The position numbers and the translations under genes were made by a program. Below the pieces are notes generated by a model. That model was not told the origin of the DNA, ran no database searches, and was given only the letters and a program-made list of their open reading frames with translations. From Candidatus Bathyarchaeota archaeon (GTDB lineage: Archaea > Thermoproteota > Bathyarchaeia > Bathyarchaeales > Bathycorpusculaceae), in contig CAWGYA010000008.1 in assembly GCA_963826715.1 (NCBI GenBank), positions 864,001 to 928,000 on the forward strand: a stretch of DNA of 64,000 nt. The letters run 5' to 3'. This document shows, piece after piece, positions 51,832 through 64,000 of this stretch (the stretch's first letter is position 1; every line of letters starts with the position of its first letter).

Positions 51832-53027
51832 ATGGCGCACAAGGTCTGCTTTATCTCACCTGAATACTGGCCGCTCACAGGAGGAACAGGTTCCTACGTC
51901 TATTACCTGTCTAATGAATTGCTTAAAAATGGCTATAAACTCTACGTCGTTACAGGCTCAAACCATGCTCAAGACGTCAAAGTCAATCCAAAGTTAGATG
52001 TGTCTTTTCTGAAAATACCCAAGATGCCAATCGTTAAATCCTTCATGCTCGCTGCTAACAGCAGCCGTAAACTAGGTAGCGTTCGAGATACAGCCAACGT
52101 CGACATCACACATCCACAGCTTCCTCTGACACCGAATTTTGCTGTGCCGACAAATTTTGGAAAAGCCCTCGTCTGTACAGTCCATTCCACATGGAAGGGC
52201 GAAGCCGAAGCTATTCGAGGTGAACCCTACAGCCGCCTAAACGCCAACGAAAAGTTCCTTGTGAGTTTTAACCGGTTTTTGCGGTTCTTCGAGGAAGGCA
52301 TGCTTAAAAGGGCGAGAAAAATCATCGCTGTTAGCCACTTCACCAAGTGGGAACTTACAAACTACTACAAAATTCCCCAGAACAAAATACAGGTTATCCA
52401 TAATGGGGTTGACGTTAACAAGTTTAAGCCTGCAGCGGACAAACGCAGGGCCAAGATGGAACTGGGCTTAAACCCCGACGATTTAGCTATAGTGTCCGTG
52501 GGGCGGCTCTATGCACGTAAAGGGCTCTTTACCCTAATCGAATCCATGCCCGCAGTCATCAAACGTTTTCCAACCGCTAAATTCATCATCAGCGGCAAAG
52601 GACAAAACGATGAAATGCACAAACTCAACGCCCACGCTGAGCGCTTAGGAGTCAGAGGCAACATAGTCTTCACAGGCTACACTCCCGACCGAGAACTGCC
52701 AAAACTCTACCAAGCCGCAGACGTCTTCGCTTTTAGCACCTTCTATGAGCATCACCCGTTTGCTGTGTTGGAAGCGTTGGCAACGGGCTTGCCTGTGGTC
52801 ACCACCACTGTGGGAGGTATTCCCGAAACCATCGACAGCGGCAAAAACGGTTTTCTGTGAACCTTTCAATTCCAAGCAGTTTAGCGAAAAAATCTTGTAC
52901 CTGCTAGAAACATCCAGCGGGGGCAGCGGAAATGGGTGCCAAAGCGCGGAAGACGGTTGTGGAGCAACTGGATTGGCGTATAGTCGTCAAAGACGCCATG
53001 AAAGTCTATGATGACGCGCTAAGATAA
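51832..53027 (+). CDS. Glycosyltransferase family 4, frameshifted near 52856 and 52909
   Basis: IHNGVD, VGRLYARKG, EHHPFAVLEALATGLPVV; C-terminus EMGAKARKTVVEQLDWRIVVKDAMKVYDDALR ends at 53027. Confidence 0.8.
52970..53027 (+). repeat. Direct repeat copy 1 (3' end of the GT4 gene)
   Basis: 24-bp core GGATTGGCGTATAGTCGTCAAAGA identical to 53758-53781; similarity continues to the stop codon. Confidence 0.85.
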
Positions 53028-53105
53028 TCGCCGTTTTTAGGCTCTTCATCAGCAGATTCTCATCAATCTTTAAAAAGGTAACAACCCAACTTTATCTCGA
53101 TACAA

Positions 53106-53399
53106 ATGCCAACAGTGGAGAAGTTAAAAGCGATTTTGGGTTTACATAAAGAAAATTTAAAGAAGAATTATAAGGTCAAAGAAATCGGTATTTTTGGGTC
53201 TTACGTTCGGCATGAGCAGAAAAAGAAAAGCGATCTATGCGTTTTGGTTACCTTTTGTGAAACAATTGACCTCTTCACGTTTGTTGAGCTTGAAAACTAT
53301 TTGAGCGATATTTTAGGGGTTAAAGTTGACCTTGTTATGAAAGATGGGATTAAACCTCGCCTCAAAGAGAGGATTTTAAGCGAGGCTGTTTACGTTTGA
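53106..53399 (+). CDS. mntA: Minimal nucleotidyltransferase (MNT) antitoxin
   Basis: IFGSYVRHEQKKKSDLC (second Asp of GSx10DxD replaced by Cys), KVDLV. Confidence 0.85.
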   Translation: MPTVEKLKAILGLHKENLKKNYKVKEIGIFGSYVRHEQKKKSDLCVLVTFCETIDLFTFVELENYLSDILGVKVDLVMKDGIKPRLKERILSEAVYV

Positions 53400-53738
53400 G
53401 AGACTTTCAAGTCTATATTGAGGACATAATTGACGCATTAAACAGCATAGTAAGCATACACTAAAGGGCTCACCTATGAGGGATTCGTTAACGATAGAAA
53501 AACCGTTGATGCAGTAATAAGAAACTTTGAGATTATCGGTGAAGCAGCTAAACAAGTTCCCCTTTCAATTCGAGAATTGTACTCCAAAGTGCCTTGGAGG
53601 GATATGGCTGGAATGCGCGACAAGCTAATACATGGCTATTTTGGGATTCAGTTAGATGTTGTTTGGAAAACTATCAAAGAGCGTTTGCCGCCACTTCGGC
53701 TTTTACTGCTTGACGCTTTAGCAGATATGAAGAAATAA
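53396..53738 (+). pseudogene. hepT: HEPN (DUF86) RNase toxin, frameshifted near 53452; absent from the ORF track
   Basis: MRDFQVYIEDIIDALNSI, then YTKGLTYE...DAVIRNFEIIGEAAK...PWRDMAGMRDKLIHGYFG (RxxxxH) in another frame. Confidence 0.85.
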
Positions 53739-53757
53739 GCTTCGTGGAGACGCAGTC

Positions 53758-53815
53758 GGATTGGCGTATAGTCGTCAAAGAAGCAATGAAAGTCTACGAC
53801 CAAGCCCTCAGCTAA
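53758..53815 (+). repeat. Direct repeat copy 2 (orphan GT4 3' end)
   Basis: Encodes DWRIVVKEAMKVYDQALS-stop versus DWRIVVKDAMKVYDDALR-stop in copy 1. Confidence 0.85.
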
Positions 53816-53946
53816 AGTTGTCTGAGGTTCAGCATTATTTAAAAGGTAAATGATTAACTATATTTCGACTATCTGTGTTGCGACCTGTACATTTTTTTTA
53901 AGCTTAATAGGAAAATAGGCTTTAGAGTGTTTCAAGGGAATTCAAT

Positions 53947-54522
53947 TTGGCGCATGAACTCCAAGCACTTATTCAACGGCTAAAACCAATCGTGTTTGTA
54001 TACATTTTCAAAGACGAAACTCCTGCAAGAATAGATCGCTTCTTGGACGTAGGCGCAACTTTGAAGCTGGTTGGTGGCTTTGAGGCTCTCACTTTTTGGT
54101 TCCGATGGGATCATGACTAGGAAGGTGATGGCATAGAGGACTGGGAACCGGTCACCTATATTATGAGCGGAGAAAAAGTTGTTGATATTCAGACACGTAC
54201 TCATTGGCGGATTGTTCGCTGGTTGAGTGACGATCCTGTTTTGGATGGTGAACGAGCGATTCTTTATTTTAGTAAACATGGCCATGCCCCATACATGCAA
54301 GTCAAAGCGAATGTTGGCTGGCTAAAAAGTGCTTTTGACAAGACCATCATAGGGTACGCGATACCTGATTTCCTTGAAGTAATGGCTGAAGAAGCTGGTT
54401 ATTTGGAAATAAGTAATTATGATGTAATACCTAACCGTGAAGCTCCACGCACGTCACGAGCAATGACAGGTGTCACTATTCTTGGCAAAAAATTCTTTGC
54501 GCAATGCTTCAAAAAGCCCTAG
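53947..54522 (+). CDS. Hypothetical protein with Vps62/NPP1-like motifs, interrupted by one in-frame TAG at 54118-54120
   Basis: TTG start after AAGGGA; MAHELQALIQRLKPIVF...WDHD-TAG-EGDGIEDWEPVTY...YFSKHGHAPY in a single frame. Confidence 0.55.
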
Positions 54523-54532
54523 AATGCGTAGC

Positions 54533-55207
54533 TTAGTTTTTTTGCGTTTTGTACCTTTTCAGCAGCTCGTCGATTGAGTCAGTGTCTTTGCTTTCATTTA
54601 GAACCTGATATCCAACAACCCAGTTCTTGAGTGATTCTTCTATTTTTGTGAAATGTCTCGTCTAATGACCTCTGGAGCTTTGCCATCAGTAACCTCTAAA
54701 GCCTTGAACATATAAGCAAATCCCGTTGATAGAGGAGCATCTGGATGCATCTTAACCCATTTCTCAACGGTATCAGTCGTTGCAAGCAATTCATCTATGA
54801 GGTCTTCCTTTCCCAGGGATTGTTTGCTTGCATTGTCAAGTTTGCCAAGAATAAACGTGCTAAAAGTTAAAGAATCGTAATTTAGCGCCCTCTCATAGGG
54901 GTCTTCAATATTATCCTGCAATCTTGACTATTTTGTCGAGGGACTCTCTCTGAAATTGTTATCCTCAGTCTTGGTAATTGATGTCGTATTTGTTAAAGAC
55001 AGGTCTTAGGTCTCTGAGGTTTCTTTGAGGAATCTCAATTACACAATTCGCCAATTTTCTATGCGGTATTTTAGATAGGATGCCATCGTTGTTTCTACCG
55101 TATAGTTCATTGTGAAATTTGGTCTTATCCTTTGTATTCTTGGAAGAAACTTGATATCTGATTATCACGTTAGCTTTAGTTAGTTTTTCGCAGCCTTCTA
55201 CTTGCAT
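54533..55207 (-). pseudogene. Hypothetical gene broken into pieces by several indels (N-terminus weakly Cas2/ferredoxin-like)
   Basis: ORFs 54965-55207 and 54640-54921 plus a tail IEESLKNWVVGYQVL...KN-stop can be joined by frame changes. Confidence 0.4.
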
Positions 55208-55409
55208 CTTCTTCTACCTGCTTTGCAAGTATAATACTTCTATTAGTTATTATATAATCATTGTGTGGTAATCACAGAAGCAAGGCGCTGTTTTCTCAAT
55301 TACAGTACTTAAGTGGCGATCCCTTAGCCCAGACGCGGTCAAATTTGACAGAAGCATGGTAATAATGTTTAAGGGCATTCTTCCTGCTATGATGTCTGGC
55401 TGGTTGTGT

Positions 55410-57416
55410 TTGAGGGGTAAGTTATGGTCAATTGAGCAGGAGCGGCAACTGCGAGACCTCGTCGCAAAGGGAGTTGGTATTGCCGAGATTTCAGAGTTAT
55501 GGGTAAGACGCGTGTTTCTGTGCGGTCCAAGATGTATCATTTAGGTTTGTCTGTAGTTGATGCAGCAGCACCTTCCCCATCCATTGCTGTATCAGTTGCA
55601 TCAATTGCATCAGTTGCATCAACTCCAAAACCCATAATCGATCAGCCACCCATTGGTCAAGCCCCTTCTCAGGTTCCAATTATAGACCATCAACCCGCTG
55701 CTAGCTCTGCCTCTTTGCCGAGTGAGGATGACGCCTTTACGACTCAACTCAAGGAGAATGCACCTTTGCCTACCATTGAGGAGCAGCTTCATGTTTTGAA
55801 CGCTGCGATAGTAGAATTGCGCAGGCCAGGTATCAGCCGGGCTGAAGTTGCAAGGTACTCAAAGATTATTGATGGTGTAAAAGTTTACAATGACCTGTTC
55901 GCTAAATTTGTCGATTACCGAGGGCTCGAAACTAAAGTCTTGGAGTTAGAAAAACGGCTTGCAGAGAATAAAATCCATAGTGGGCAGAGTCGTCGCAGAT
56001 TCAATGCCAGAGATATCCAATCGCACTGGCAAAACCTGGATGAAGCGTACAGAATTCGCCAGCAAGCCACCCACGCAAAGGTTGAAGCAGTTAAGGGTGA
56101 CACGGCAGCGTTCTTCCAGCAAATCTGCCGTCTAAAACCCTTTGGCTACCAGTTGGAACTCCCAAAACTGTACCGTGAAAACCAGTTTTTGGCGGTTAGG
56201 TGGCCACGGCAGACAGGCAAGAGCACATCGATTGGAGCGTTGCTGCTTCAGGACGCCTATGAGAATGGCGACTTAAGCGTTGCATTCATTGGTCCGAGCT
56301 TTCGCCAAACCAAGCTTAACCTGCGACGTGTGGCGGGATTTTGCCGCAACCTGCCCCTGGGAACCTGCCAAGTGCAGAAAACCAGAATCAGCTTTGAAAA
56401 CGGCTCATTCATCGAAGCCTTCCCCAACAACCCCGACACCACCCGAGGCAACACATTCCACCGCGTCTGGTGGGATGAAGTCAACTTCACCCAAGGCGAC
56501 GACGACCTATACGACGCCCTCCTATACACCCTGGGAACCACAAACGGCAAACTCGTAGCCAGCAGCACCCCATTCAACACCGACTCACTGTTTTGGAGAA
56601 TGTGCAACCACAAAAGATTCGCAAACTATGCAAAACACCACTTTTCCTACGAGGCCGCACTTGAACCAAACGGTCCACTGAATGCGCAGATGATTGAGCG
56701 GATCAAGGAACAGTTTGGGGATGATCCAAGCCGTTGGCGTCGAGAGATGGAGGCTGAGTGGGCTGAAGATGAAGATGTGTGGCTTGCTCAGAGTTTGATT
56801 GTTTCGTGTATTGGCACCAAAAAGAACTGCGGACAAGACCTCGAAGAATACGACACAGAGAAAAGTTGCAGCGGAGAGTTTTTCTTGGGTAGACATCGGT
56901 CAAGTCAGAGACTACACATCACTAAGCATCGTAGAAATGGTGGACGACACGATTTATTTGAGGCATCAAAAACTGTTTCCGCATCCAACCACCCACGCAC
57001 ATGTCTTAGGCTACATCAAGCGTCTGCAGGATCTGTGGGGCGGCTTCCAGAAAATCCGCGTCGACTTCACCCGAGAAGGCCCCAGCCTCATCAAAGACAT
57101 GGAAAACGCAGGCATAGACAACGCTGAAGGCGTCAACTTCAGTGTCCCCCGAAAAAGCGAAATGGCAAGCCTACTAAAACAACGCATGCAAAACCAACAA
57201 CTCCGCTTTCCCCTGCTCACATGGGAGAAACCCTACCGAAGCGACATATGCAGTGAACTCAACGTTGAAAAATACCAACTGCGCAAAGACGGGAACATAG
57301 GATACAGCCACCCCAACGGCACCCACGACGACGTCTTCTGGAGCATAGCATTAGCCGTATACGCAACAACCGACATGGCGCCTGAACCTTTCTTAACAGT
57401 AGTTCCTCGAAGCTAA
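55410..57416 (+). CDS. HTH/small-terminase-like N-terminal region read through into a phage terminase large subunit; frameshifts near 55498 and 56889
   Basis: RGKLWSIEQERQLRDL...MGKTRVSVRSK HTH; Walker A WPRQTGKST, Walker B VWWDEV, ASSTP; RNase H-like VDIG and HDDVFWSIALA. Confidence 0.82.
55592..55618 (+). repeat. 3 x 9-bp tandem repeat (SVA-SIA-SVA) in a low-complexity linker
   Basis: TCAGTTGCA TCAATTGCA TCAGTTGCA. Confidence 0.7.
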
Positions 57417-57443
57417 AATCAAGTCAGGGCTAATTAATTGAGT

Positions 57444-57504
57444 TGGCGGGGCCGCTGGGATTTGGACATGGCTCACAATGGAGAAATCACCCGCACTTCC
57501 CTTT
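57444..57504 (-). repeat. Degenerate tRNA 3'-end fragment with flanking arm (att-like), copy 1
   Basis: Minus strand reads ...GTCCAAATCCCAGCGGCCCCGCCA: T-loop remnant, T-stem, acceptor strand and CCA; the flank is shared with 61441-61498. Confidence 0.7.
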
Positions 57505-57508
57505 CTTT

Positions 57509-58183
57509 TTATAATTCTAAGGGGATTATTGATAGCAGGTCAGCAAACTCATGTATTATAAAGTCAGGTTGGCTAACGAGCAACTTTGCTTGATAGTCTC
57601 TTGCATGCACGTACGCGGTCTTTCCGTATTTGCACTGTATTGTTCTTATGCCTAATTGCTTTGCGGGAACAATATCTTGCTCTAAATCATCACCGATTGA
57701 GAAGCAATTTGTAGGATCACCAATTTCCTTTAGGGCTAACTGCAAGTGTTTTCCGCATGCTTTGGGTGCTTTAACCATATCTGAAGTTATAATGCAATCA
57801 AAGAATTCAGACATTTTTAGATACTCAATCCTCGGGGTGATTACTTCTTTTACCGCATTGGTCAACAAAAAAATCCCAAAACCGTTTCTGTGGTATTTAG
57901 ATAAGACATTTTTTACCCCCGGAATTAGTTTTATTTGGTTAATTGACAAATCATGAGCTATTTTCCAGTCTATTCCAAATAGCTTTCCATGATATGGATA
58001 ATCATACCAAATCCATGAATCTTCATTCGTTCTTAAAAAGTCAAGATATTTTTCTTGAGCTTCTTTAAAGGGAATCCTTTCTTTTTCAGCAATCTCATTT
58101 TCAATTTTGTTGCACAATGTTTTGTCAAGTGAATACTCATCAGCTAACGTGCCAGTCCAGTCAAAAAGCAAATACTTCTTCAA
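57509..58183 (-). CDS. HAD-superfamily hydrolase
   Basis: FDWTGTL, LTNA, PK, IGDDLEQDI.PAK.LG. Confidence 0.88.
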   Translation of the reverse strand: MKKYLLFDWTGTLADEYSLDKTLCNKIENEIAEKERIPFKEAQEKYLDFLRTNEDSWIWYDYPYHGKLFGIDWKIAHDLSINQIKLIPGVKNVLSKYHRNGFGIFLLTNAVKEVITPRIEYLKMSEFFDCIITSDMVKAPKACGKHLQLALKEIGDPTNCFSIGDDLEQDIVPAKQLGIRTIQCKYGKTAYVHARDYQAKLLVSQPDFIIHEFADLLSIIPLEL

Positions 58184-58187
58184 GGCT

Positions 58188-60557
58188 TCACTTTCCCTCT
58201 TCTGCCTTTATTTCAATTGAGTCTAGGAATTTCTCAATTGCATCGCAAATACTCTCGATGTTGATGTCTTGATTAGCAGTTGCGACTTGTTTAATTTTGC
58301 CTAAGTACCTCTTGAGATTGGGGACATCATTTTTCTCCGGAGAAATTGTCCTGAAATAACTCCAAATCTTTAGAGAGATTATCGAACTAGGATTTTTCTT
58401 GAGGAGATACTGCTCGTCAATATCCTTTTTGAGAACCTGTTTTATTTCAGACTCGCCGTAGTATTGTTTTTGTATTTTATCATTCGTTGCAGCAGCTTCC
58501 CCTTTGTCCTTTAAGTCCTCGATAAGAAAAAGCACATATTCCTCACAGTATTTCCTGTCGTTTATTGTAGATAAAGCCAAACTGGCAGACCTAAAATAGA
58601 CTGGATTGTATCTCTGCCTATTAGTTACAATATCAATTAATACCTTAGTTAATTCTTCCGATTGGATTCGGAGTTTGCCTATATAATAAAGAACTTCCTG
58701 TAACCTTTCATCGTATTTTAGGAGGTCTTTTTTCTGTTCCTCAATAACATTCTTGAAAGCTACGGCAGCTCTTAAATTAAACTTACCGGGATTTAGCTTC
58801 AAGGTAAAACGGAGTCTTTCCGTTTCCTTGATAAAATGCTGGCTCACTTCGTGAGTTTGAAATACATTCCAAATTTCGGAACAGACACTCTGAGTTTTGT
58901 CGGGATTAAAAACGCAAGAGGCTAAGCTGAAGGCTATAAGATACTCCATAAATGACTTGTGTGAGAAAGTGAATGACCTATCAGTGGCTCGCTTAAGGAT
59001 GGCAAACACGCTAGAATTAAGCATTATATCGGCAACTTTACTTGGTTTCAAAACGATAAATCTCTTTACAGCACAGATTTGTTCTATTTCATTGATAGTT
59101 GTTTGCGCTGCAGCTTTAGATTCATAGTTTTTTTCAGCAATTGCGAGCAACAATTTGAAGCTTTCCTCTTCAAACAATTGCTTATCAAGGTTAAAGACGC
59201 CTGCCTTGCGGCTATGGTCATCGCTGATTTTCCATGTAATGAACTTATAGTATATTTCCGAAAGATTGCCTGATAGACCATCAAGAATTCTAATTTCCGT
59301 CTTGTTGCTTATTTCTAGGTCACAAAGCATTTTAAGAAATAGAGGCCTATTTGGCAGATCTAGAAACTTTTGGGATTCAACCTTTTCAAAAAAATCATTT
59401 ATTTCTTTAGTCTTAAGTGGCTGTTTGGCTAGCAATCCTTCCTTGTATTTTATCCATTGTAGGCTCTTCCAATCTCTTAATTCCACGTAGGTGTGATTCT
59501 TTAGGTCTCCTCCAATCGCTTGAAAGGCATCAAAAAAAGGGTTAAACTCCCTTCTACAAGTGAGTAGAACTACAAACTTGTTTTTGAAAAGGAAATTGAT
59601 AAAATGTTTCAGGACAACAGAGTTGCAGTCAGATTCGTCAATACCATCCAGAATTATTGCCAGTTTTCTATACTGTAGCATTCTCGCTATATTCTTGGTA
59701 AACAGGTCGTCATCTAATGACAACAATGCATTGCTATATCGAGATTTATGTTGAATAAGACATTGTATGATTTCTGCGACAACTTTCTGCGCGAGGTGTT
59801 CACCCTCGAATGTCTCGATTTTTTCATTAGTCAACTCGATAAAAATAGGGTAAATTGCTTCAGGAACCCATTTCTTGAAATATATTTTGCTGATTGTTGT
59901 CTTTCCCATGCCGTAAAAACCTGAACAAATAACGGGTCCATGTAGCACCGCCTTTTTTAGAAATCGCAGGCATCCACCGCTTGAGCAAGAAACATGTATG
60001 TGGCGCCTGCCATGGAAGTAATCAAAATTGTCAACAAAATCCTCTTCGCTAATATCATATGGCCACATTCCACTGATTGTCGATGATTTTTCCTTAAAGT
60101 AATCTTGAAGTTCTGGGTAGGGGTAGTATACATCATACAAGAATCGTGCCGTCTGTGAGCAGCTTTTGATAGTAACTTCCCCGCTTTCATAGTTACCAAA
60201 CAAGTTTGCCATTTTTGCCGTTGGATGGATGTTTGTCAAGAAAACAATGTGTGAACCTGTTAGCTTGTTATCTTTGGCAGTTTTCCACATATTGGGGATA
60301 TCTTCAAGTTTTTTTCTCATATACTCGATATTGCCGCCTGGGCTTTCACCGCCATAAATCTGGAAAAGAATTTCTTTGGATGCAAAATCAATACCCCCAT
60401 CCCTTCCATCCTCTGGCGCCCACAATGTAGGTCCGAATTTCCTAGCTAGAAATGACACTACGAATTTCTCAAAGGGAATGCCGTTTTTCTGGGTGAGGTC
60501 AGACTCAATACGAGCGAGTAACTGCTTGTTTAACTGAGGCGTCTTTTCAACATCCAT
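58188..60557 (-). CDS. NACHT/STAND NTPase with N-terminal restriction-endonuclease-like domain and helical C-terminus
   Basis: FEKFV...DGRDGGIDF...FQIY; Walker A GFYGMGKTT; Walker B IILDGIDE; TCR; RPLFLKM; FSHKSFMEYLIA. Confidence 0.85.
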   Translation of the reverse strand: MDVEKTPQLNKQLLARIESDLTQKNGIPFEKFVVSFLARKFGPTLWAPEDGRDGGIDFASKEILFQIYGGESPGGNIEYMRKKLEDIPNMWKTAKDNKLTGSHIVFLTNIHPTAKMANLFGNYESGEVTIKSCSQTARFLYDVYYPYPELQDYFKEKSSTISGMWPYDISEEDFVDNFDYFHGRRHIHVSCSSGGCLRFLKKAVLHGPVICSGFYGMGKTTISKIYFKKWVPEAIYPIFIELTNEKIETFEGEHLAQKVVAEIIQCLIQHKSRYSNALLSLDDDLFTKNIARMLQYRKLAIILDGIDESDCNSVVLKHFINFLFKNKFVVLLTCRREFNPFFDAFQAIGGDLKNHTYVELRDWKSLQWIKYKEGLLAKQPLKTKEINDFFEKVESQKFLDLPNRPLFLKMLCDLEISNKTEIRILDGLSGNLSEIYYKFITWKISDDHSRKAGVFNLDKQLFEEESFKLLLAIAEKNYESKAAAQTTINEIEQICAVKRFIVLKPSKVADIMLNSSVFAILKRATDRSFTFSHKSFMEYLIAFSLASCVFNPDKTQSVCSEIWNVFQTHEVSQHFIKETERLRFTLKLNPGKFNLRAAVAFKNVIEEQKKDLLKYDERLQEVLYYIGKLRIQSEELTKVLIDIVTNRQRYNPVYFRSASLALSTINDRKYCEEYVLFLIEDLKDKGEAAATNDKIQKQYYGESEIKQVLKKDIDEQYLLKKNPSSIISLKIWSYFRTISPEKNDVPNLKRYLGKIKQVATANQDINIESICDAIEKFLDSIEIKAEEGK

Positions 60558-60809
60558 TTAGTGCTTAATCGCAATTAGGGATTTTGCAATTAGATATTGT
60601 GAGCGACAAAAAAGAACATTTCTTTTTTTTCTCGTTGTGTATCATGAGCTCGGTCCTTGTTTATTCTTATTTTTGTCCATTTCAAATGGTTATAGCGGCT
60701 TTCCGAACTAAAATTTTGAGAGTTAACTGTAAAAAAATTTTAAATAAGCGCTAAATATAGTGCTTCAAGTAAGCGCTCAGACACTAAGCGCTGGAGGTGG
60801 AAAGACGAA

Positions 60810-61019
60810 ATGAGTAACGATGAACTAAGAATTGCGGTTTGCTTGGTTTTAGCAGCAGTGTTAGTTTTCCCCAGTTTAGCTTTGATGAACTCTAATCCAT
60901 TGTTTATTCTATCTCTTGGCGTTGGTATTCTTGTTATCATTTATGCATTTAGTCCCGATTTAGCCTCAGAAATTGTTGACGGAATTAAAGAAATAGTAAC
61001 TGCACCTTTCAAAAAGTGA
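60810..61019 (+). CDS. Small two-TM membrane protein
   Basis: Strong GGAGGTG ribosome-binding site; two hydrophobic helices. Confidence 0.65.
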   Translation: MSNDELRIAVCLVLAAVLVFPSLALMNSNPLFILSLGVGILVIIYAFSPDLASEIVDGIKEIVTAPFKK

Positions 61020-61136
61020 TTTAATTGAATTATTGATTAGTTTCGTGACTTTGATTATGGAGCAATAGCTCTTTTTTCCATTTAAGGTGGGCGGTGCTTG
61101 TACTATATTTTCGCAAATTGTTATTTAGGTTCTTTG

Positions 61137-61379
61137 TCAGAGTTCTTCAAGAGTAATTTCGCTTATTACTTCCGAATACTCTTTTCCGTCAATTCTATTT
61201 CTTTGAAGGAGCTTACGAAAGAAATCATCTATCTCTTTGGCCTTAACCCACTCATTCTCCAAAAATTCGTCTAATGTGCCAGTGAAAGTAAGCCCATTTA
61301 TCGAAACAACTGTATAGGTTCCGTCGCCATTTTGTATTATCTTTTTCCACTGACTTATGACAGGTTCCCCAATATCCAG
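61137..61379 (-). CDS. Possible 80-aa hypothetical protein with no canonical start codon
   Basis: Open frame LDIGEPVISQWKKIIQNGDGTYTVV...ITLEEL-stop with protein-like composition. Confidence 0.3.
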   Translation of the reverse strand: MDIGEPVISQWKKIIQNGDGTYTVVSINGLTFTGTLDEFLENEWVKAKEIDDFFRKLLQRNRIDGKEYSEVISEITLEEL

Positions 61380-61440
61380 GATATATCAAGGTCTATTCAA
61401 AAATTGCCCTAACTGGATTAAACAAACCCTAGCTTAATTT

Positions 61441-61498
61441 TGGATAGCGATGGATTTGAACTCATGCCAAAGTGGAGATGTCATCCGCATTTCCCTTT
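61441..61498 (-). repeat. More decayed att-like tRNA 3'-end repeat, copy 2
   Basis: Plus strand GGATTTGAAC (reverse complement of the T-loop GTTCAAATCC) followed by TGGAGA..TCA.CCGCA.TTCCCTTT as in copy 1. Confidence 0.6.
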
Positions 61499-61546
61499 TT
61501 TTGAGCTTAGTTTAAAGTTACTTATTTCAATGAATCAACTTGAAAA

Positions 61547-62029
61547 TTAAGAATGGGGTTTTCTTTCTCTTTGTCTTTTAATGCCGATATTTAGTGGTGG
61601 TTTATCCTGATACTCCATTACATAATACTGAATACACTTTGTCTCACGATTGTCAGCTTCTTTTGCACTGCTTAATTCAGTCCAATATACTCTTATGTTC
61701 TTGGCGTTCAGTTTAATTGTATCGGGAAAGTGGTTATCGCGGAAATACCTTCGAAAATTCCAGCCCTCTGAGTGACTATTTCGGTATAAACTCTCATCAA
61801 ATACGTCCCTATGAAATTGCCTTATTCTTCTGTTAAGATTTACCGCTTTGCCGATGCATAATATTCCATCGCTATCTTCTTTTCCATTCAACCTTGGAAA
61901 ACACTTTGGTTTGCCATTTTCTATGTAAATCAGCACGTAGACACCTGAACTTCTTGGAATTTTCTTCAATGATTCCAAGTCTGCGATTTCAGCAGTTTCA
62001 TAATTTATGAGTATTTCATCAAATATCAT
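61547..62029 (-). CDS. GIY-YIG-like nuclease
   Basis: SGVYVL...LCIGKAVNLNRRI...E...PPLN. Confidence 0.75.
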   Translation of the reverse strand: MIFDEILINYETAEIADLESLKKIPRSSGVYVLIYIENGKPKCFPRLNGKEDSDGILCIGKAVNLNRRIRQFHRDVFDESLYRNSHSEGWNFRRYFRDNHFPDTIKLNAKNIRVYWTELSSAKEADNRETKCIQYYVMEYQDKPPLNIGIKRQRERKPHS

Positions 62030-62050
62030 TGTTTAACACCCTCAAATCCG

Positions 62051-62593
62051 TTAGGTGCAAATGGCGATTCCTTTTGTTAACTCTTCAAGTTCCGATAGTT
62101 CATCGTTTGTAAGTAATCTATAAGTTGTTATCCTACTGTTCTTTAGAGGCAATAGATTGTTTATTGAAGTTTCCAATTGCTTCCACTGTACAATTTTCTT
62201 GGTTTTTCCCTTGGCAAGTTTTGATGTATCTAAAATCTGAATGAAGGTGACGTTTTCATCCATTTCAATCGGTTCATTATTTTTTACGTAATGGATGAAG
62301 TACTTAGCCAATGCTGATGTGAGAAATTTTCCACAAACCTGCGTAGGCTTAACGTTTGACTCTTCAATTTCGACAATTAGCCTAATCTTATCATGTTTAA
62401 GTATCATCATGTCAACGTTACAAAATTCGTTTTCTTTGCTTTTTACAGGGTTGTAAAATAGTGGAATGTGTTGTTTTCCGTCGCAAGCTGGGTCTCGAAG
62501 AAGGGTAAGGTTTGGGTATTTTGAAACAAATTCTTGGAAAGCTCTTCCGATTTTCTTGTGGATAATATTTGCTTCCTTCGGCATAACGGTCAT
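62051..62593 (-). CDS. Putative PD-(D/E)xK-fold protein
   Basis: N-terminal H, then VDMMIL...IVEIEES. Confidence 0.5.
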   Translation of the reverse strand: MTVMPKEANIIHKKIGRAFQEFVSKYPNLTLLRDPACDGKQHIPLFYNPVKSKENEFCNVDMMILKHDKIRLIVEIEESNVKPTQVCGKFLTSALAKYFIHYVKNNEPIEMDENVTFIQILDTSKLAKGKTKKIVQWKQLETSINNLLPLKNSRITTYRLLTNDELSELEELTKGIAICT

Positions 62594-62595
62594 GA

Positions 62596-63954
62596 CTAAT
62601 TCTCCAATACATACTCTTTTTCATGTTCAATCGTTTGCATGTTGCTGCAAAGAGTTTTGAATAGCTTCTGATTTTCTGTATGGACCGGAAAAGCTCGCTT
62701 GGGCTTAATTTCGTTTACCATTTCCACCAATTGTTCTTTACTCATGTGTCCCGAAGCGTGAACTTGATGGAAGTTCATTTTGAAGTGATTTAGCCAGTTG
62801 TGCATGACTTGGTCTTCGATGTCTTCTTCGCTAAAAGGTTCACTCATGCTATGGATGAATTCGCTTCCAGCTTTCGGCTTTATGTCGATTAATTCGGTGA
62901 ACTGGAAAAAGTCGAGATCCATTATTATTTTGCCTTGATTCTTGCGAACATACTTACAATCAACCATCTTATCCATGAATTTGCGTTCCCAAGGGAAATA
63001 GTCTTTCTCGCTGTATGTTCCTGACTTCTTTTTCTTATAATACACACGAATACAGTCATCTTTGAGCGGGTCTGGAACATCTAAATGCTCGTCACTGAGC
63101 AACTTGGTTAGCAGATAGGCAGTCTTGGGCGTTATGACCATTTTTCTATTATTATTTTTAGCCACTTCGTAGAAACTCTTGAACCTGTCAATGTCTCGGC
63201 TGGCATGCATGGTGAAGACTGCCTTGTCGGTTGCCTTTACGATTTTGTCGCTTATCTGTGCGACTTGCGGCTCAGAGTAGTTCTGTCGTGTTTCTCTTTC
63301 AGCCATTCTGGTTCCCTCGCAGATTAGTGCCTTAGGCTCCGCTTCTTTGGCTTTTTCGATAAAGTTTTCAGTTAGGTCTTTTCTGGGTCCGTGACGCCGT
63401 AAGTCGCCTGTATAGACGATTGTGCCTTCGGAGGCGTGAATAATAAAGCCATATGCAGCTGGAATTGAATGGTCAACCGCAATCGGCTCGACGGTCAAAT
63501 TGCCAATTTTGATTTTATGCCCTGTTCTAAACTTATTGCAAATATGTTCGCCGTAATCTGCAAAGTAACCTGTCTCCTCCATCGACTCCATAAACAGTTT
63601 CGCCCCAACGCCCATACAGACCGGAATACTTGGATCCAAAAACTCAATATGAGTTACGTGGTCAAAATGCGCATGTGAAAGAAAAACACAATCGATTTCA
63701 GGATCAGTATAAGGCAAGTTTGTTGAAGCAAGCATTTCCTTTGAATACAGACCGCTCCGCTTTGGAAGAAGACCAAACTCGAAGTAATCGCCTAAACCAT
63801 TAAGGCCTCTTGGTTGAAGCCAGTTAGTGAAAAACTCTGAGCCAAAAGTGAATGACTGCCCAAAGTCAAGAAAAATTTTGGTACCCTTGTCTTCCAAAAG
63901 TATCTTGTTGCCGCCAATCTCGTTGACGCCGCCATAGAATGTTAACTTAACGAT
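62596..63954 (-). CDS. Metallo-beta-lactamase/beta-CASP nuclease (RNase J-like)
   Basis: HAHFDH, VDHS, TGDLRRHG, HASGH, PVH; the conserved N-terminus VKLTFYGGVNEIGGNK extends upstream of the ORF-track start. Confidence 0.88.
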   Translation of the reverse strand: MVKLTFYGGVNEIGGNKILLEDKGTKIFLDFGQSFTFGSEFFTNWLQPRGLNGLGDYFEFGLLPKRSGLYSKEMLASTNLPYTDPEIDCVFLSHAHFDHVTHIEFLDPSIPVCMGVGAKLFMESMEETGYFADYGEHICNKFRTGHKIKIGNLTVEPIAVDHSIPAAYGFIIHASEGTIVYTGDLRRHGPRKDLTENFIEKAKEAEPKALICEGTRMAERETRQNYSEPQVAQISDKIVKATDKAVFTMHASRDIDRFKSFYEVAKNNNRKMVITPKTAYLLTKLLSDEHLDVPDPLKDDCIRVYYKKKKSGTYSEKDYFPWERKFMDKMVDCKYVRKNQGKIIMDLDFFQFTELIDIKPKAGSEFIHSMSEPFSEEDIEDQVMHNWLNHFKMNFHQVHASGHMSKEQLVEMVNEIKPKRAFPVHTENQKLFKTLCSNMQTIEHEKEYVLEN

Positions 63955-64000
63955 GATTAACGCTGCTTAGACATAAGTCAGCGATATCAGCTTATAGAAT

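Follow-up and report, generated by a model that had tools for sequence, protein, structure and literature searches.

A candidate antiviral NLR-like NACHT protein and its HAD hydrolase partner in a Bathyarchaeota archaeon

What is the role of an archaeal gene pair in which an NLR-like NTPase gene is followed directly by a gene for a HAD hydrolase? The question is raised by positions 57,509 to 60,557 of a 64,000-nucleotide (nt) stretch of Candidatus Bathyarchaeota archaeon DNA (GenBank assembly GCA_963826715.1, contig CAWGYA010000008.1, positions 864,001 to 928,000), here called the window, where an earlier note made from the sequence alone had proposed a new antiviral system. Our analysis favors, with a probability of roughly 0.55 and by analogy with described systems, a module of the antiviral STAND or bacterial NLR type residing in an archaeon, in which the HAD hydrolase would act as a second, nucleotide-dephosphorylating effector.

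Two open reading frames (ORFs) were found on the minus strand exactly where the note had drawn them, separated by the 4-nt gap it described, and a purine-rich stretch lies ahead of the TTG start codon of the HAD gene. The AT-rich setting was likewise confirmed, with a GC content of 0.36–0.39 at 58–63 kb against ~0.43–0.46 across most of the window. Two TBP genes mark the genome as archaeal, a signal confined to archaeal genomes in the control set. The parts of the pair are as follows (aa, amino acids).

58188..60557, minus strand: NLR-like STAND gene (nuclease-fold domain, NACHT-type NTPase and helical C-terminus), an ORF of 789 aa
60108..60557, minus strand: N-terminal domain of PD-(D/E)xK (restriction-endonuclease-like) fold, aa 1–150, from the structure model and conservation
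59478..59945, minus strand: NACHT-type P-loop NTPase core (aa ~205–360), from conserved columns, fold matches and sub-threshold Pfam matches
59895-59918, minus strand: Walker A, G216-M-G-K-T220, from the alignment
59634-59660, minus strand: Walker B, hhhhD304-G-I-D-E308, from the alignment
58191..58880, minus strand: C-terminal all-helical region (aa ~560–789), the presumed sensor, from the secondary structure of the AlphaFold2 (AF2) model
58184..58187, minus strand: 4-nt spacer separating the stop codon of the NACHT gene (TGA) from the start codon of the HAD gene (TTG), reading TGA-AGCC-TTG
57509..58183, minus strand: capped HAD-IA hydrolase gene, an ORF of 224 aa, from Pfam and NCBIfam matches and the subfamily alignment
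58145-58162, minus strand: HAD motif I, D8-W-T10-G-T-L, from the subfamily alignment
Within the same protein: the other HAD motifs, II (T108-N109), III (K141) and IV (G164-D165...D170), from the alignment

The large protein has the tripartite layout that had been read from its sequence, namely an N-terminus of restriction-endonuclease-like fold, a P-loop NTPase with Walker A and B motifs, and an all-helical C-terminus. Proteins of the STAND NACHT clade are marked by a Walker A motif GxxxxGK[ST] and a Walker B motif hhhhD-[GAS]-h-D-E, and the window protein fits this signature. Across 30 aligned sequences Y215-K219, D304, D307 and E308 are invariant, and T220, G305 and I306 are conserved in ≥90%. 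The full-length AF2 model (pLDDT 83.8, pTM 0.76) has the fold of the NLR-like module of nucleotide-binding, helical and winged-helix domains: a Foldseek search with it yielded 111 matches at E ≤ 0.001, led by NOD2 (E 1e-9) and then NLRC4 and NLRP3, with ~570–600 columns aligned to these three, and including Avs4 (8.7e-9) and Avs3 (1.3e-6). Sub-threshold Pfam matches to NPHP3_N and NB-ARC cover aa 209–336, and the Pfam NACHT model itself was not among the matches; three relatives pass the NPHP3_N cut-off of 24.8 bits (at loci L066, 28.2; L011, 25.8; and L070, 25.2). The full-length profile gave only a chance-level match (E 0.06) among PDB sequences, and the protein matched nothing in PADLOC, NCBIfam or PHROGs, PADLOC v2 returning 0 families at E ≤ 0.01 for it and 0 also for the homologues at L008 and L002. 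The structure model supports the assignment of the large protein as a predicted NLR-like STAND protein with an N-terminal nuclease-fold domain.

The N-terminal domain is modeled with a pLDDT >90 over ~aa 10–140 and carries the motif F-E30 ... D53-G-G-I-D57 ... F-Q66-I-Y68, which is conserved across 12 aligned relatives. The conserved residues are F-[E/Q]30, D53, D57, Q66-x-Y68, K83 and T108-N109, of which the invariant K83 sits in the helix after Y68. In a wide fold search with VIA-align, the best match was AF1548 (1y88; Z 7.6, 109 residues aligned, root-mean-square deviation 3.5). The top 50 matches are mostly titled as restriction or repair endonucleases, CRISPR-ancillary or CBASS nucleases, defense nucleases and CdiA-CT toxins, and their names include AF1548, R.BspD6I, FokI, Card1, Can2, MspJI, SduA, Avs4 and NucC. 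Pfam Mrr_cat did not match the domain in the window protein and reached 16.9 bits (cut-off 21, E 0.0072) in the L008 homologue, and a profile of the domain found nothing meaningful among PDB sequences. The domain family is rare: a profile search of 1.84 billion representatives returned 13 proteins, six of them at E ≤ 1e-30, and the full-domain matches are N-termini of ~800-aa proteins, bar one 328-aa fragment. In the homologue at L007 (L007:1618-1890) the frame of the domain is open, yet no ATG, GTG or TTG start lies ahead of residue ~90, which points to a start codon of non-canonical type or to an error in the sequence.

The 789-aa protein has 25 homologues among the 5.8 billion proteins searched, and the shared NTPase and C-terminus (29–43% identity) occur behind different N-termini. 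The N-terminus is of the DUF4062/TIR_2 type at L002 and L009 and in proteins P0014-17, TIR at L066 and in P0013, Trypsin_2 at L013-16, L067, L068 and L072, and SIR2_2 at L018. In alignments the C-terminal helical region is kept in the Mrr-like, DUF4062, TIR, trypsin and SIR2 forms. The swapped N-termini match defense-associated PADLOC models (ThsB, pAgo-associated TIR, DRT type XI protease and SIR2) and the core matches none; at L014, L066 and L018 the PADLOC matches come solely through the N-terminal or methyltransferase parts. Such N-terminal effector swapping is a hallmark of antiviral STAND proteins, and we consider a putative defense function of the module likely. No relatives turned up when viral contigs were scanned with the profiles of HAD and NACHT.

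The second protein had been called a HAD hydrolase with a DxT variant of motif I, and this holds well: Pfam Hydrolase scores 61.3 bits (cut-off 26.4) and HAD_2 58.1 (cut-off 23.8), and DWTGT (D8-W-T10-G-T) is invariant in 10 of 10 aligned subfamily members. The nucleophile Asp is invariant, and so are T108, K141, D165 and D170, leaving motifs II–IV intact. The best NCBIfam match is TIGR02253 (CTE7), whose score of 90.7 is far under the cut-off of 169.75, followed by the pyrophosphatase PpaX and the pyrimidine nucleotidases YjjG and PynA, all under their cut-offs; the protein atlas returned generic HAD clusters alone. The nearest solved relatives by profile, PH1655 (2hoq, E 2.6e-24) and 4ygq (E 3e-24), have the capped HAD-IA layout in common with the window protein; in contrast to its invariant DWTGT, they carry the canonical DxD (DLDDT and DIDGT). 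Threonine at the second-Asp position is the signature of the P-type ATPases (DKTGT), whose phosphoryl donor is ATP, and because D-x-T resembles this motif, substrates with good leaving groups would be favored. In HAD phosphatases the second Asp of motif I is the general acid/base, according to PMC12715507, and its loss should slow turnover.

Relatives of the HAD protein also occur on their own. A word-based search returned just seven relatives, and no longer, fused forms were found in the search, which is weak evidence for their absence. Free-standing DWTGT HADs, 36–42% identical to the window protein, are found at L022-L036, mostly in Aminicenantes-type metagenome-assembled genomes (MAGs). 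A same-strand ORF of 325–408 aa comes after the HAD gene in 13 of the 15 closest genome loci, and all nine such ORFs that were scanned encode TrmA/RumA-type tRNA/rRNA (uracil-5) methyltransferases (PF05958). A HAD lineage of housekeeping type seems to have been recruited into the NACHT module. One archaeal HAD locus, L026, adjoins eIF6.

Is the pairing itself conserved? A search for further NACHT-HAD pairs had been suggested in the earlier note, and the pair does recur. When the HAD protein was run by tblastn against the loci of 19 relatives, two matched (L007 and L008, both divergent metagenome loci), each with a HAD gene directly downstream on the same strand. Identities to the window proteins are 47% (NACHT) and 53% (HAD) at L007 and 45% and 50% at L008, and the flanking genes differ. 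At a third locus with the same N-terminus, L006, the contig stops inside the NACHT gene. Three further NACHT-HAD pairs are suggested by longest contigs of equal size: P0002 and P0027 (189,499 nt), P0015 and P0028 (13,162 nt), and P0050 and P0044 (12,320 nt). P0002 and P0027 are 79% and 74% identical to the window NACHT and HAD proteins, respectively, and P0015 and P0050 are NACHTs of the DUF4062 form. A complex prediction for NACHT(1-775) with HAD, run without controls, scored 0.00 against a mark of 0.32 and counts neither for nor against an interaction. Overall, we regard a functional link between the NACHT and HAD genes as very likely.

Other branches of the family have other enzymes beside them. 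Trypsin-NACHT genes are followed by a 283–305-aa methyltransferase (55–58% identity) at L014, L015, L067, L068 and L071, in Planctomycetota-type MAGs and metagenomes. This methyltransferase is a close homologue of 8vyd (E 3e-66), that is TK2045, which PMC11551388 describes as a 16S rRNA m4,2C918 synthase working on assembled ribosomes. At L066 (3-2981, the two genes together) the TIR-NACHT gene has a 156-aa cytidine/dCMP deaminase 3 nt downstream (stop 2507, start 2511), and the SIR2-NACHT at L018 (597-4616) has a Methyltrans_SAM domain fused at its C-terminus. PADLOC mad2 is matched by the methyltransferase of L014 and by that of L018, and BLASTP found no link between the two. A tree of the core (a quick IQ-TREE run with SH-aLRT support) gathers every HAD-linked row in a single clade (support 99), within which the DUF4062 forms are nested; the trypsin and methyltransferase rows group on their own (100), and the TIR and deaminase rows make up a third clade (100). 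From these sequence relationships, the HAD partner appears to follow the NACHT core and not the N-terminal effector domain, which argues against a role in nuclease chemistry such as DNA-end processing. That role, one of those floated for the HAD in the earlier note, is weakened and counts as the least likely: the enzyme is a capped, small-molecule-type HAD that apparently stayed with the core through the swap from nuclease-fold domain to DUF4062.

The genomic setting is that of variable DNA.

57468..64000, unstranded: left part of an 11.7-kb strain-specific insertion that runs ~5.2 kb past the window end, from blastn against the genomes G210 and G202

Searches of 200 further genomes of the order recovered neither the NACHT protein (at E ≤ 1e-10) nor the HAD (at E ≤ 1e-15). 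The pair is the first cargo of the 11.7-kb insertion, the HAD stop lying 41 nt from the junction at 57468. Flanks were compared in 18 same-genus genomes that hold the GT2 glycosyltransferase and the radical-SAM/SPASM gene on one contig. These two flank genes are 2.6–3.3 kb apart in 16 of the 18, 5.2 kb apart in G210, 26.2 kb in G202 and 18.8 kb in the window genome. By blastn, G210 matches window positions 52174-53029 and 55310-57467 and resumes at the window-equivalent position 69213, with no insertion at the 57467/57468 junction. G202 matches 54446-57467 and diverges after; at the same junction (L079/L080, G202:C6) it holds ~20 kb of low-GC DNA with HsdR, HsdS and HsdM (a type I restriction-modification system), a TPR protein and an MBL-fold protein. 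The junction, which follows a terminase-like gene described below, is a variable insertion point and a hotspot of defense type, and the two genes would, on sequence grounds, make up one horizontally acquired module. No tRNA genes or Rfam families were found in the island. The att-like repeats said to flank the pair could not be recovered: three repeat searches (52–64 kb, 40–64 kb, and 50 kb to 16 kb past the window end) found none around it, and the only direct repeat to reach significance (58 nt, copies at 52970 and 53758) lies on either side of another gene, 4.5 kb away from the pair.

How does the pair relate to described systems? Like Avs (Avs4, 8dgf; Avs3, 8dgc), it has the layout of effector, STAND NTPase and helical sensor, with effector swapping in the family, and its N-domain matches the nuclease region of Avs4 at Z 6.1. 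Unlike Avs, the window protein has no PADLOC Avs match and its best folds are NACHT-clade NLRs, and the system has a rare N-domain family with QxY for QxK, a second gene (HAD) and an archaeal host. With bNACHT it shares the D-G-h-D-E form of Walker B in a NACHT-type core, N-terminal effectors that vary and a sensor at the C-terminus; it differs in Pfam scores under the cut-offs and in finding no match in PADLOC, which we take to include bNACHT and NLR models. The bNACHTs in the descriptions consulted are single proteins that use host DnaJ or directly bind phage triggers, and those descriptions mention no HAD partner.

HAD enzymes already have a place in defense. PUA-Calcineurin-CE-HAD (Metis) resembles the window pair in encoding a separate capped (C1) HAD beside a larger sensor-effector protein. 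In that system the HAD is loaded on a scaffold and converts dNTPs to dNDPs (10.64898/2026.01.15.699771). Its HAD has D7/D9 where the window HAD has D8/T10, the scaffold in the window is a NACHT NTPase, and scans of the pair and of surrounding ORFs revealed no PUA, calcineurin-CE or CARF domain. The CARF-HAD protein Chp of type III CRISPR carries a HAD effector that dephosphorylates ATP, dATP and IMP (PMC12715507); in contrast to the window HAD, it is a fused CARF-transmembrane-HAD protein, activated by cA4, with the canonical D8/D10. Two DefensePredictor systems are further points of comparison. DS-8, a metallophosphatase-NACHT fusion, is a precedent for a phosphoesterase with NACHT, and DS-9, a validated two-gene defense system of metallophosphatase plus HAD whose mechanism is unexplained, is a precedent for a HAD gene in defense. 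Both differ from the window pair in having a metallophosphatase and not a nuclease fold, and no NACHT-HAD combination is described for them; they are set apart here by their descriptions, not by their sequences.

Full-text literature searches found no described NACHT-HAD operon. At least 90 defense-associated STAND families have been reported (10.64898/2026.01.04.697583), among which the NACHT core family may already stand; in the main text of that report the words ‘HAD’, ‘phosphatase’ and ‘methyltransferase’ do not occur. An exact match to a named system, which the earlier note had treated as decisive against its proposal, did not turn up in PADLOC for either gene. Its remark that the HAD partner was not one it recognized from described systems held in part: HADs as a class are known in defense (PUA-Cal-HAD, CARF-HAD and DS-9), and it is the pairing with NACHT that is new. 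The novelty of the module, probably a variant of the Avs/bNACHT type, would lie in this pairing.

By analogy with Avs and bNACHT, the helical C-terminus would recognize an infection cue, upon which NTP-dependent oligomerization of the NACHT core could activate the N-terminal restriction-endonuclease-fold domain; the activated domain would then damage nucleic acid and cause abortive infection. The HAD would be a dedicated partner of the NACHT core and not of the nuclease domain, and its likeliest job would be to strip phosphate from nucleotides and so starve viral replication, like the HADs of PUA-Cal-HAD and CARF-HAD, its D-x-T motif favoring substrates with good leaving groups, for example (d)NTP phosphoanhydrides. 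We hold this role of the HAD, a nucleotide-depleting co-effector, only tentatively. If the module protects, it would represent an archaeal NLR-like system with a previously unrecognized nuclease-fold effector domain, it would mean that NACHT receptors can bring a dedicated small-molecule enzyme partner, and it would give a biological role to a natural HAD with a P-type-ATPase-like D-x-T motif. That each core clade has one partner enzyme of its own gives a direct way to test how STAND receptors connect to metabolism.

Several findings weigh against this reading. For the N-domain, the calibration that comes with VIA rates a Z of 7.6 as middling, and Foldseek returned nothing at E ≤ 0.001, its top match being a Shedu nuclease (E 1.2e-2). 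The domain has D57 and Q66, and the canonical Lys of the D...(D/E/Q)-x-K triad is replaced by the invariant Y68; furthermore, E30 is replaced by Q in 3 of the 12 sequences. Because of these two substitutions, the putative nuclease activity of what we model as a rare nuclease-fold effector domain of Mrr-like layout is uncertain, and the nuclease N-terminus that the note had called stands in its restriction-endonuclease-like fold, seen in the model and in the VIA match, and not in its canonical catalytic lysine. In the core, the Pfam NACHT-clan scores of the window protein are sub-threshold (NPHP3_N 20 against 24.8 bits, NB-ARC 18.9 against 23.5), and neither gene of the pair matches any PADLOC model. 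Motif I of the HAD is without the second Asp, the general acid/base, which both characterized defense HADs keep (D7/D9 and D8/D10). Outside this genome, direct observation covers only two pairs, the three others resting on a coincidence of contig sizes, and downstream of the family members at L002, L009, L003 and L070 there is no partner enzyme. A NACHT-family gene is missing from all 43 genome loci that hold HAD-subfamily relatives, and the Aminicenantes-type loci of HAD plus m5U methyltransferase lie amid housekeeping genes (PEPCK and PfkB kinases).

Of the alternatives, the one that survives best also assumes a defense module and makes the HAD a regulator or safety device instead of an effector, either hydrolyzing a nucleotide or a small phosphorylated ligand able to activate NACHT or gating activation through a long-lived phospho-aspartate. 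The invariant Thr at D+2, with the general acid/base lost and turnover slowed, fits a switch over a high-flux sink, and the HAD tracks the NACHT core clade and not the effector domain. However, the literature searches gave no precedent for such a device, the Mg- and phosphate-binding motifs II–IV are fully conserved, as in working enzymes, and there are family members without any partner. We consider this explanation unlikely.

It is also conceivable, and we think quite unlikely, that the partner enzymes (the DxT HAD, the TK2045-like methyltransferase, the cytidine deaminase and the fused methyltransferase) form a sensing arm, with NACHT guarding them or reading a modified pyrimidine nucleotide that they bind or make. 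The NLR-like family, archaeal and bacterial, would in that case watch over enzymes of pyrimidine or RNA modification, or over their products, and sense a metabolic danger signal instead of a viral protein. Each core clade does have its own enzyme partner; the L018 methyltransferase is fused at the C-terminus, the usual position of a STAND sensor; relatives of the partners act on pyrimidines (TK2045 makes m4,2C in 16S rRNA); free-standing DWTGT HADs adjoin m5U methyltransferases; and PUA-Cal-HAD/Metis provides a precedent for the sensing of modified mononucleotides. This support is purely contextual, however, and the conserved 230-aa helical C-terminus already resembles a protein-binding sensor. 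The resemblance of the methyltransferases to mad2 of the MADS system would moreover allow them a role in modification or self-marking.

Improbable, in our view, is a non-immune explanation, in which a STAND-type regulatory or housekeeping ATPase and a metabolic HAD were transferred together as a small operon of unrelated function. The failure of both genes to match a known defense model would fit it, as would the housekeeping contexts of DWTGT HADs and the neighbors at L006, L007 and L008, which are not defense genes (thymidylate kinase, a ThyA-like gene, a TPR protein and ArsR). The swapping of TIR, SIR2, protease and nuclease-fold N-termini is, however, typical of conflict systems, the pair was not found in any of the 200 related genomes searched, and it lies in a low-GC hotspot that holds a restriction-modification system in a sister genome. 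That two unrelated genes are adjacent by accident is hardly credible: just three adjacent pairs, the window included, were seen directly, but the genes lie on one strand with a 4-nt spacer, stay together at 45–47% (NACHT) and 50–53% (HAD) identity between different flanks, and are equally absent from related genomes.

The gene on the other side of the junction is convergent with the HAD gene.

55499-57416, plus strand: large-terminase (TerL-like) gene, ending 92 nt from the HAD stop

The earlier note had remarked on this convergent terminase as intriguing and perhaps coincidental. The neighbor is indeed there, ending at 57416, and its adjacency is coincidental, because it belongs to a multi-copy family and is present at this locus in G210 without the pair; the supposed link between TerL and the pair was not upheld. 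The terminase as trigger or partner was rejected on grounds of synteny and copy number. Of 20 same-genus genomes, 14 have members of the family, in up to seven copies, and the window genome has four, the others at G000:C7:124731-125582, C5:105963-106820 and C8:1215450-1216274. The gene stands at this locus in both G210 and G202 (93–95% DNA identity), and in G210 the matched blocks beside it are 206 nt apart, too close to accommodate the pair. In metagenome contigs from soil and wetland, terminase-related sequences are far commoner than the NACHT-HAD region, and coverage of the pair is sparse. The window copy breaks frame after 56889 (window 56880-56895), splitting in two frames with a 2-nt frameshift, and six related metagenome contigs from three runs have two extra bases (CT) there that restore ...GEFFLGLDIG...; the window copy is a pseudogene, or else the break is an error of assembly. 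Next to the terminase no other virion genes were recognized, and a TerL-like gene that stands alone and recurs in this way is unusual and could be the sign of an unrecognized mobile element.

The DNA around the pair holds further genes of note. Upstream of the pair lies a cluster of three genes (61547-63897, minus strand), a 433-aa beta-CASP/RNase J-like MBL nuclease, a 180-aa protein without a family and a 160-aa protein with a weak GIY-YIG match (E 0.062). None of the three matches PADLOC, and the cluster could be another defense candidate. In the island past the window end, a 312-aa ORF (L021:5074-6012) has no Pfam match and hits the PADLOC TGT model at E 1.1e-8; it stands among four other unknown ORFs. 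Genes of thymidylate metabolism turn up near members of the HAD and NACHT families: an intact thymidylate kinase gene upstream of the pair at L007 (L007:547-1203), a thymidylate-synthase-like gene upstream of the L006 homologue (L006:3100-4515) and, in 2.4 kb of ORF-poor island DNA, a 54-aa fragment judged by eye to look like the P-loop end of thymidylate kinase (L021:2378-2542, ~380–540 nt past the window end). These neighbors may reflect a thymidylate link for the HAD, or chance.

To the left of the pair, comparison with G210 shows a second insertion at 53030-55309. The two copies of the 58-nt direct repeat (52970-53027 and 53758-53815) are 84% identical, end in a stop codon and duplicate the 3' end of a GT4 glycosyltransferase gene, and they bracket an MNT-type nucleotidyltransferase that matches PADLOC PDC-S09 (E 3.6e-28). 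The GT4 glycosyltransferase itself (51832-53027) reads through three frames.

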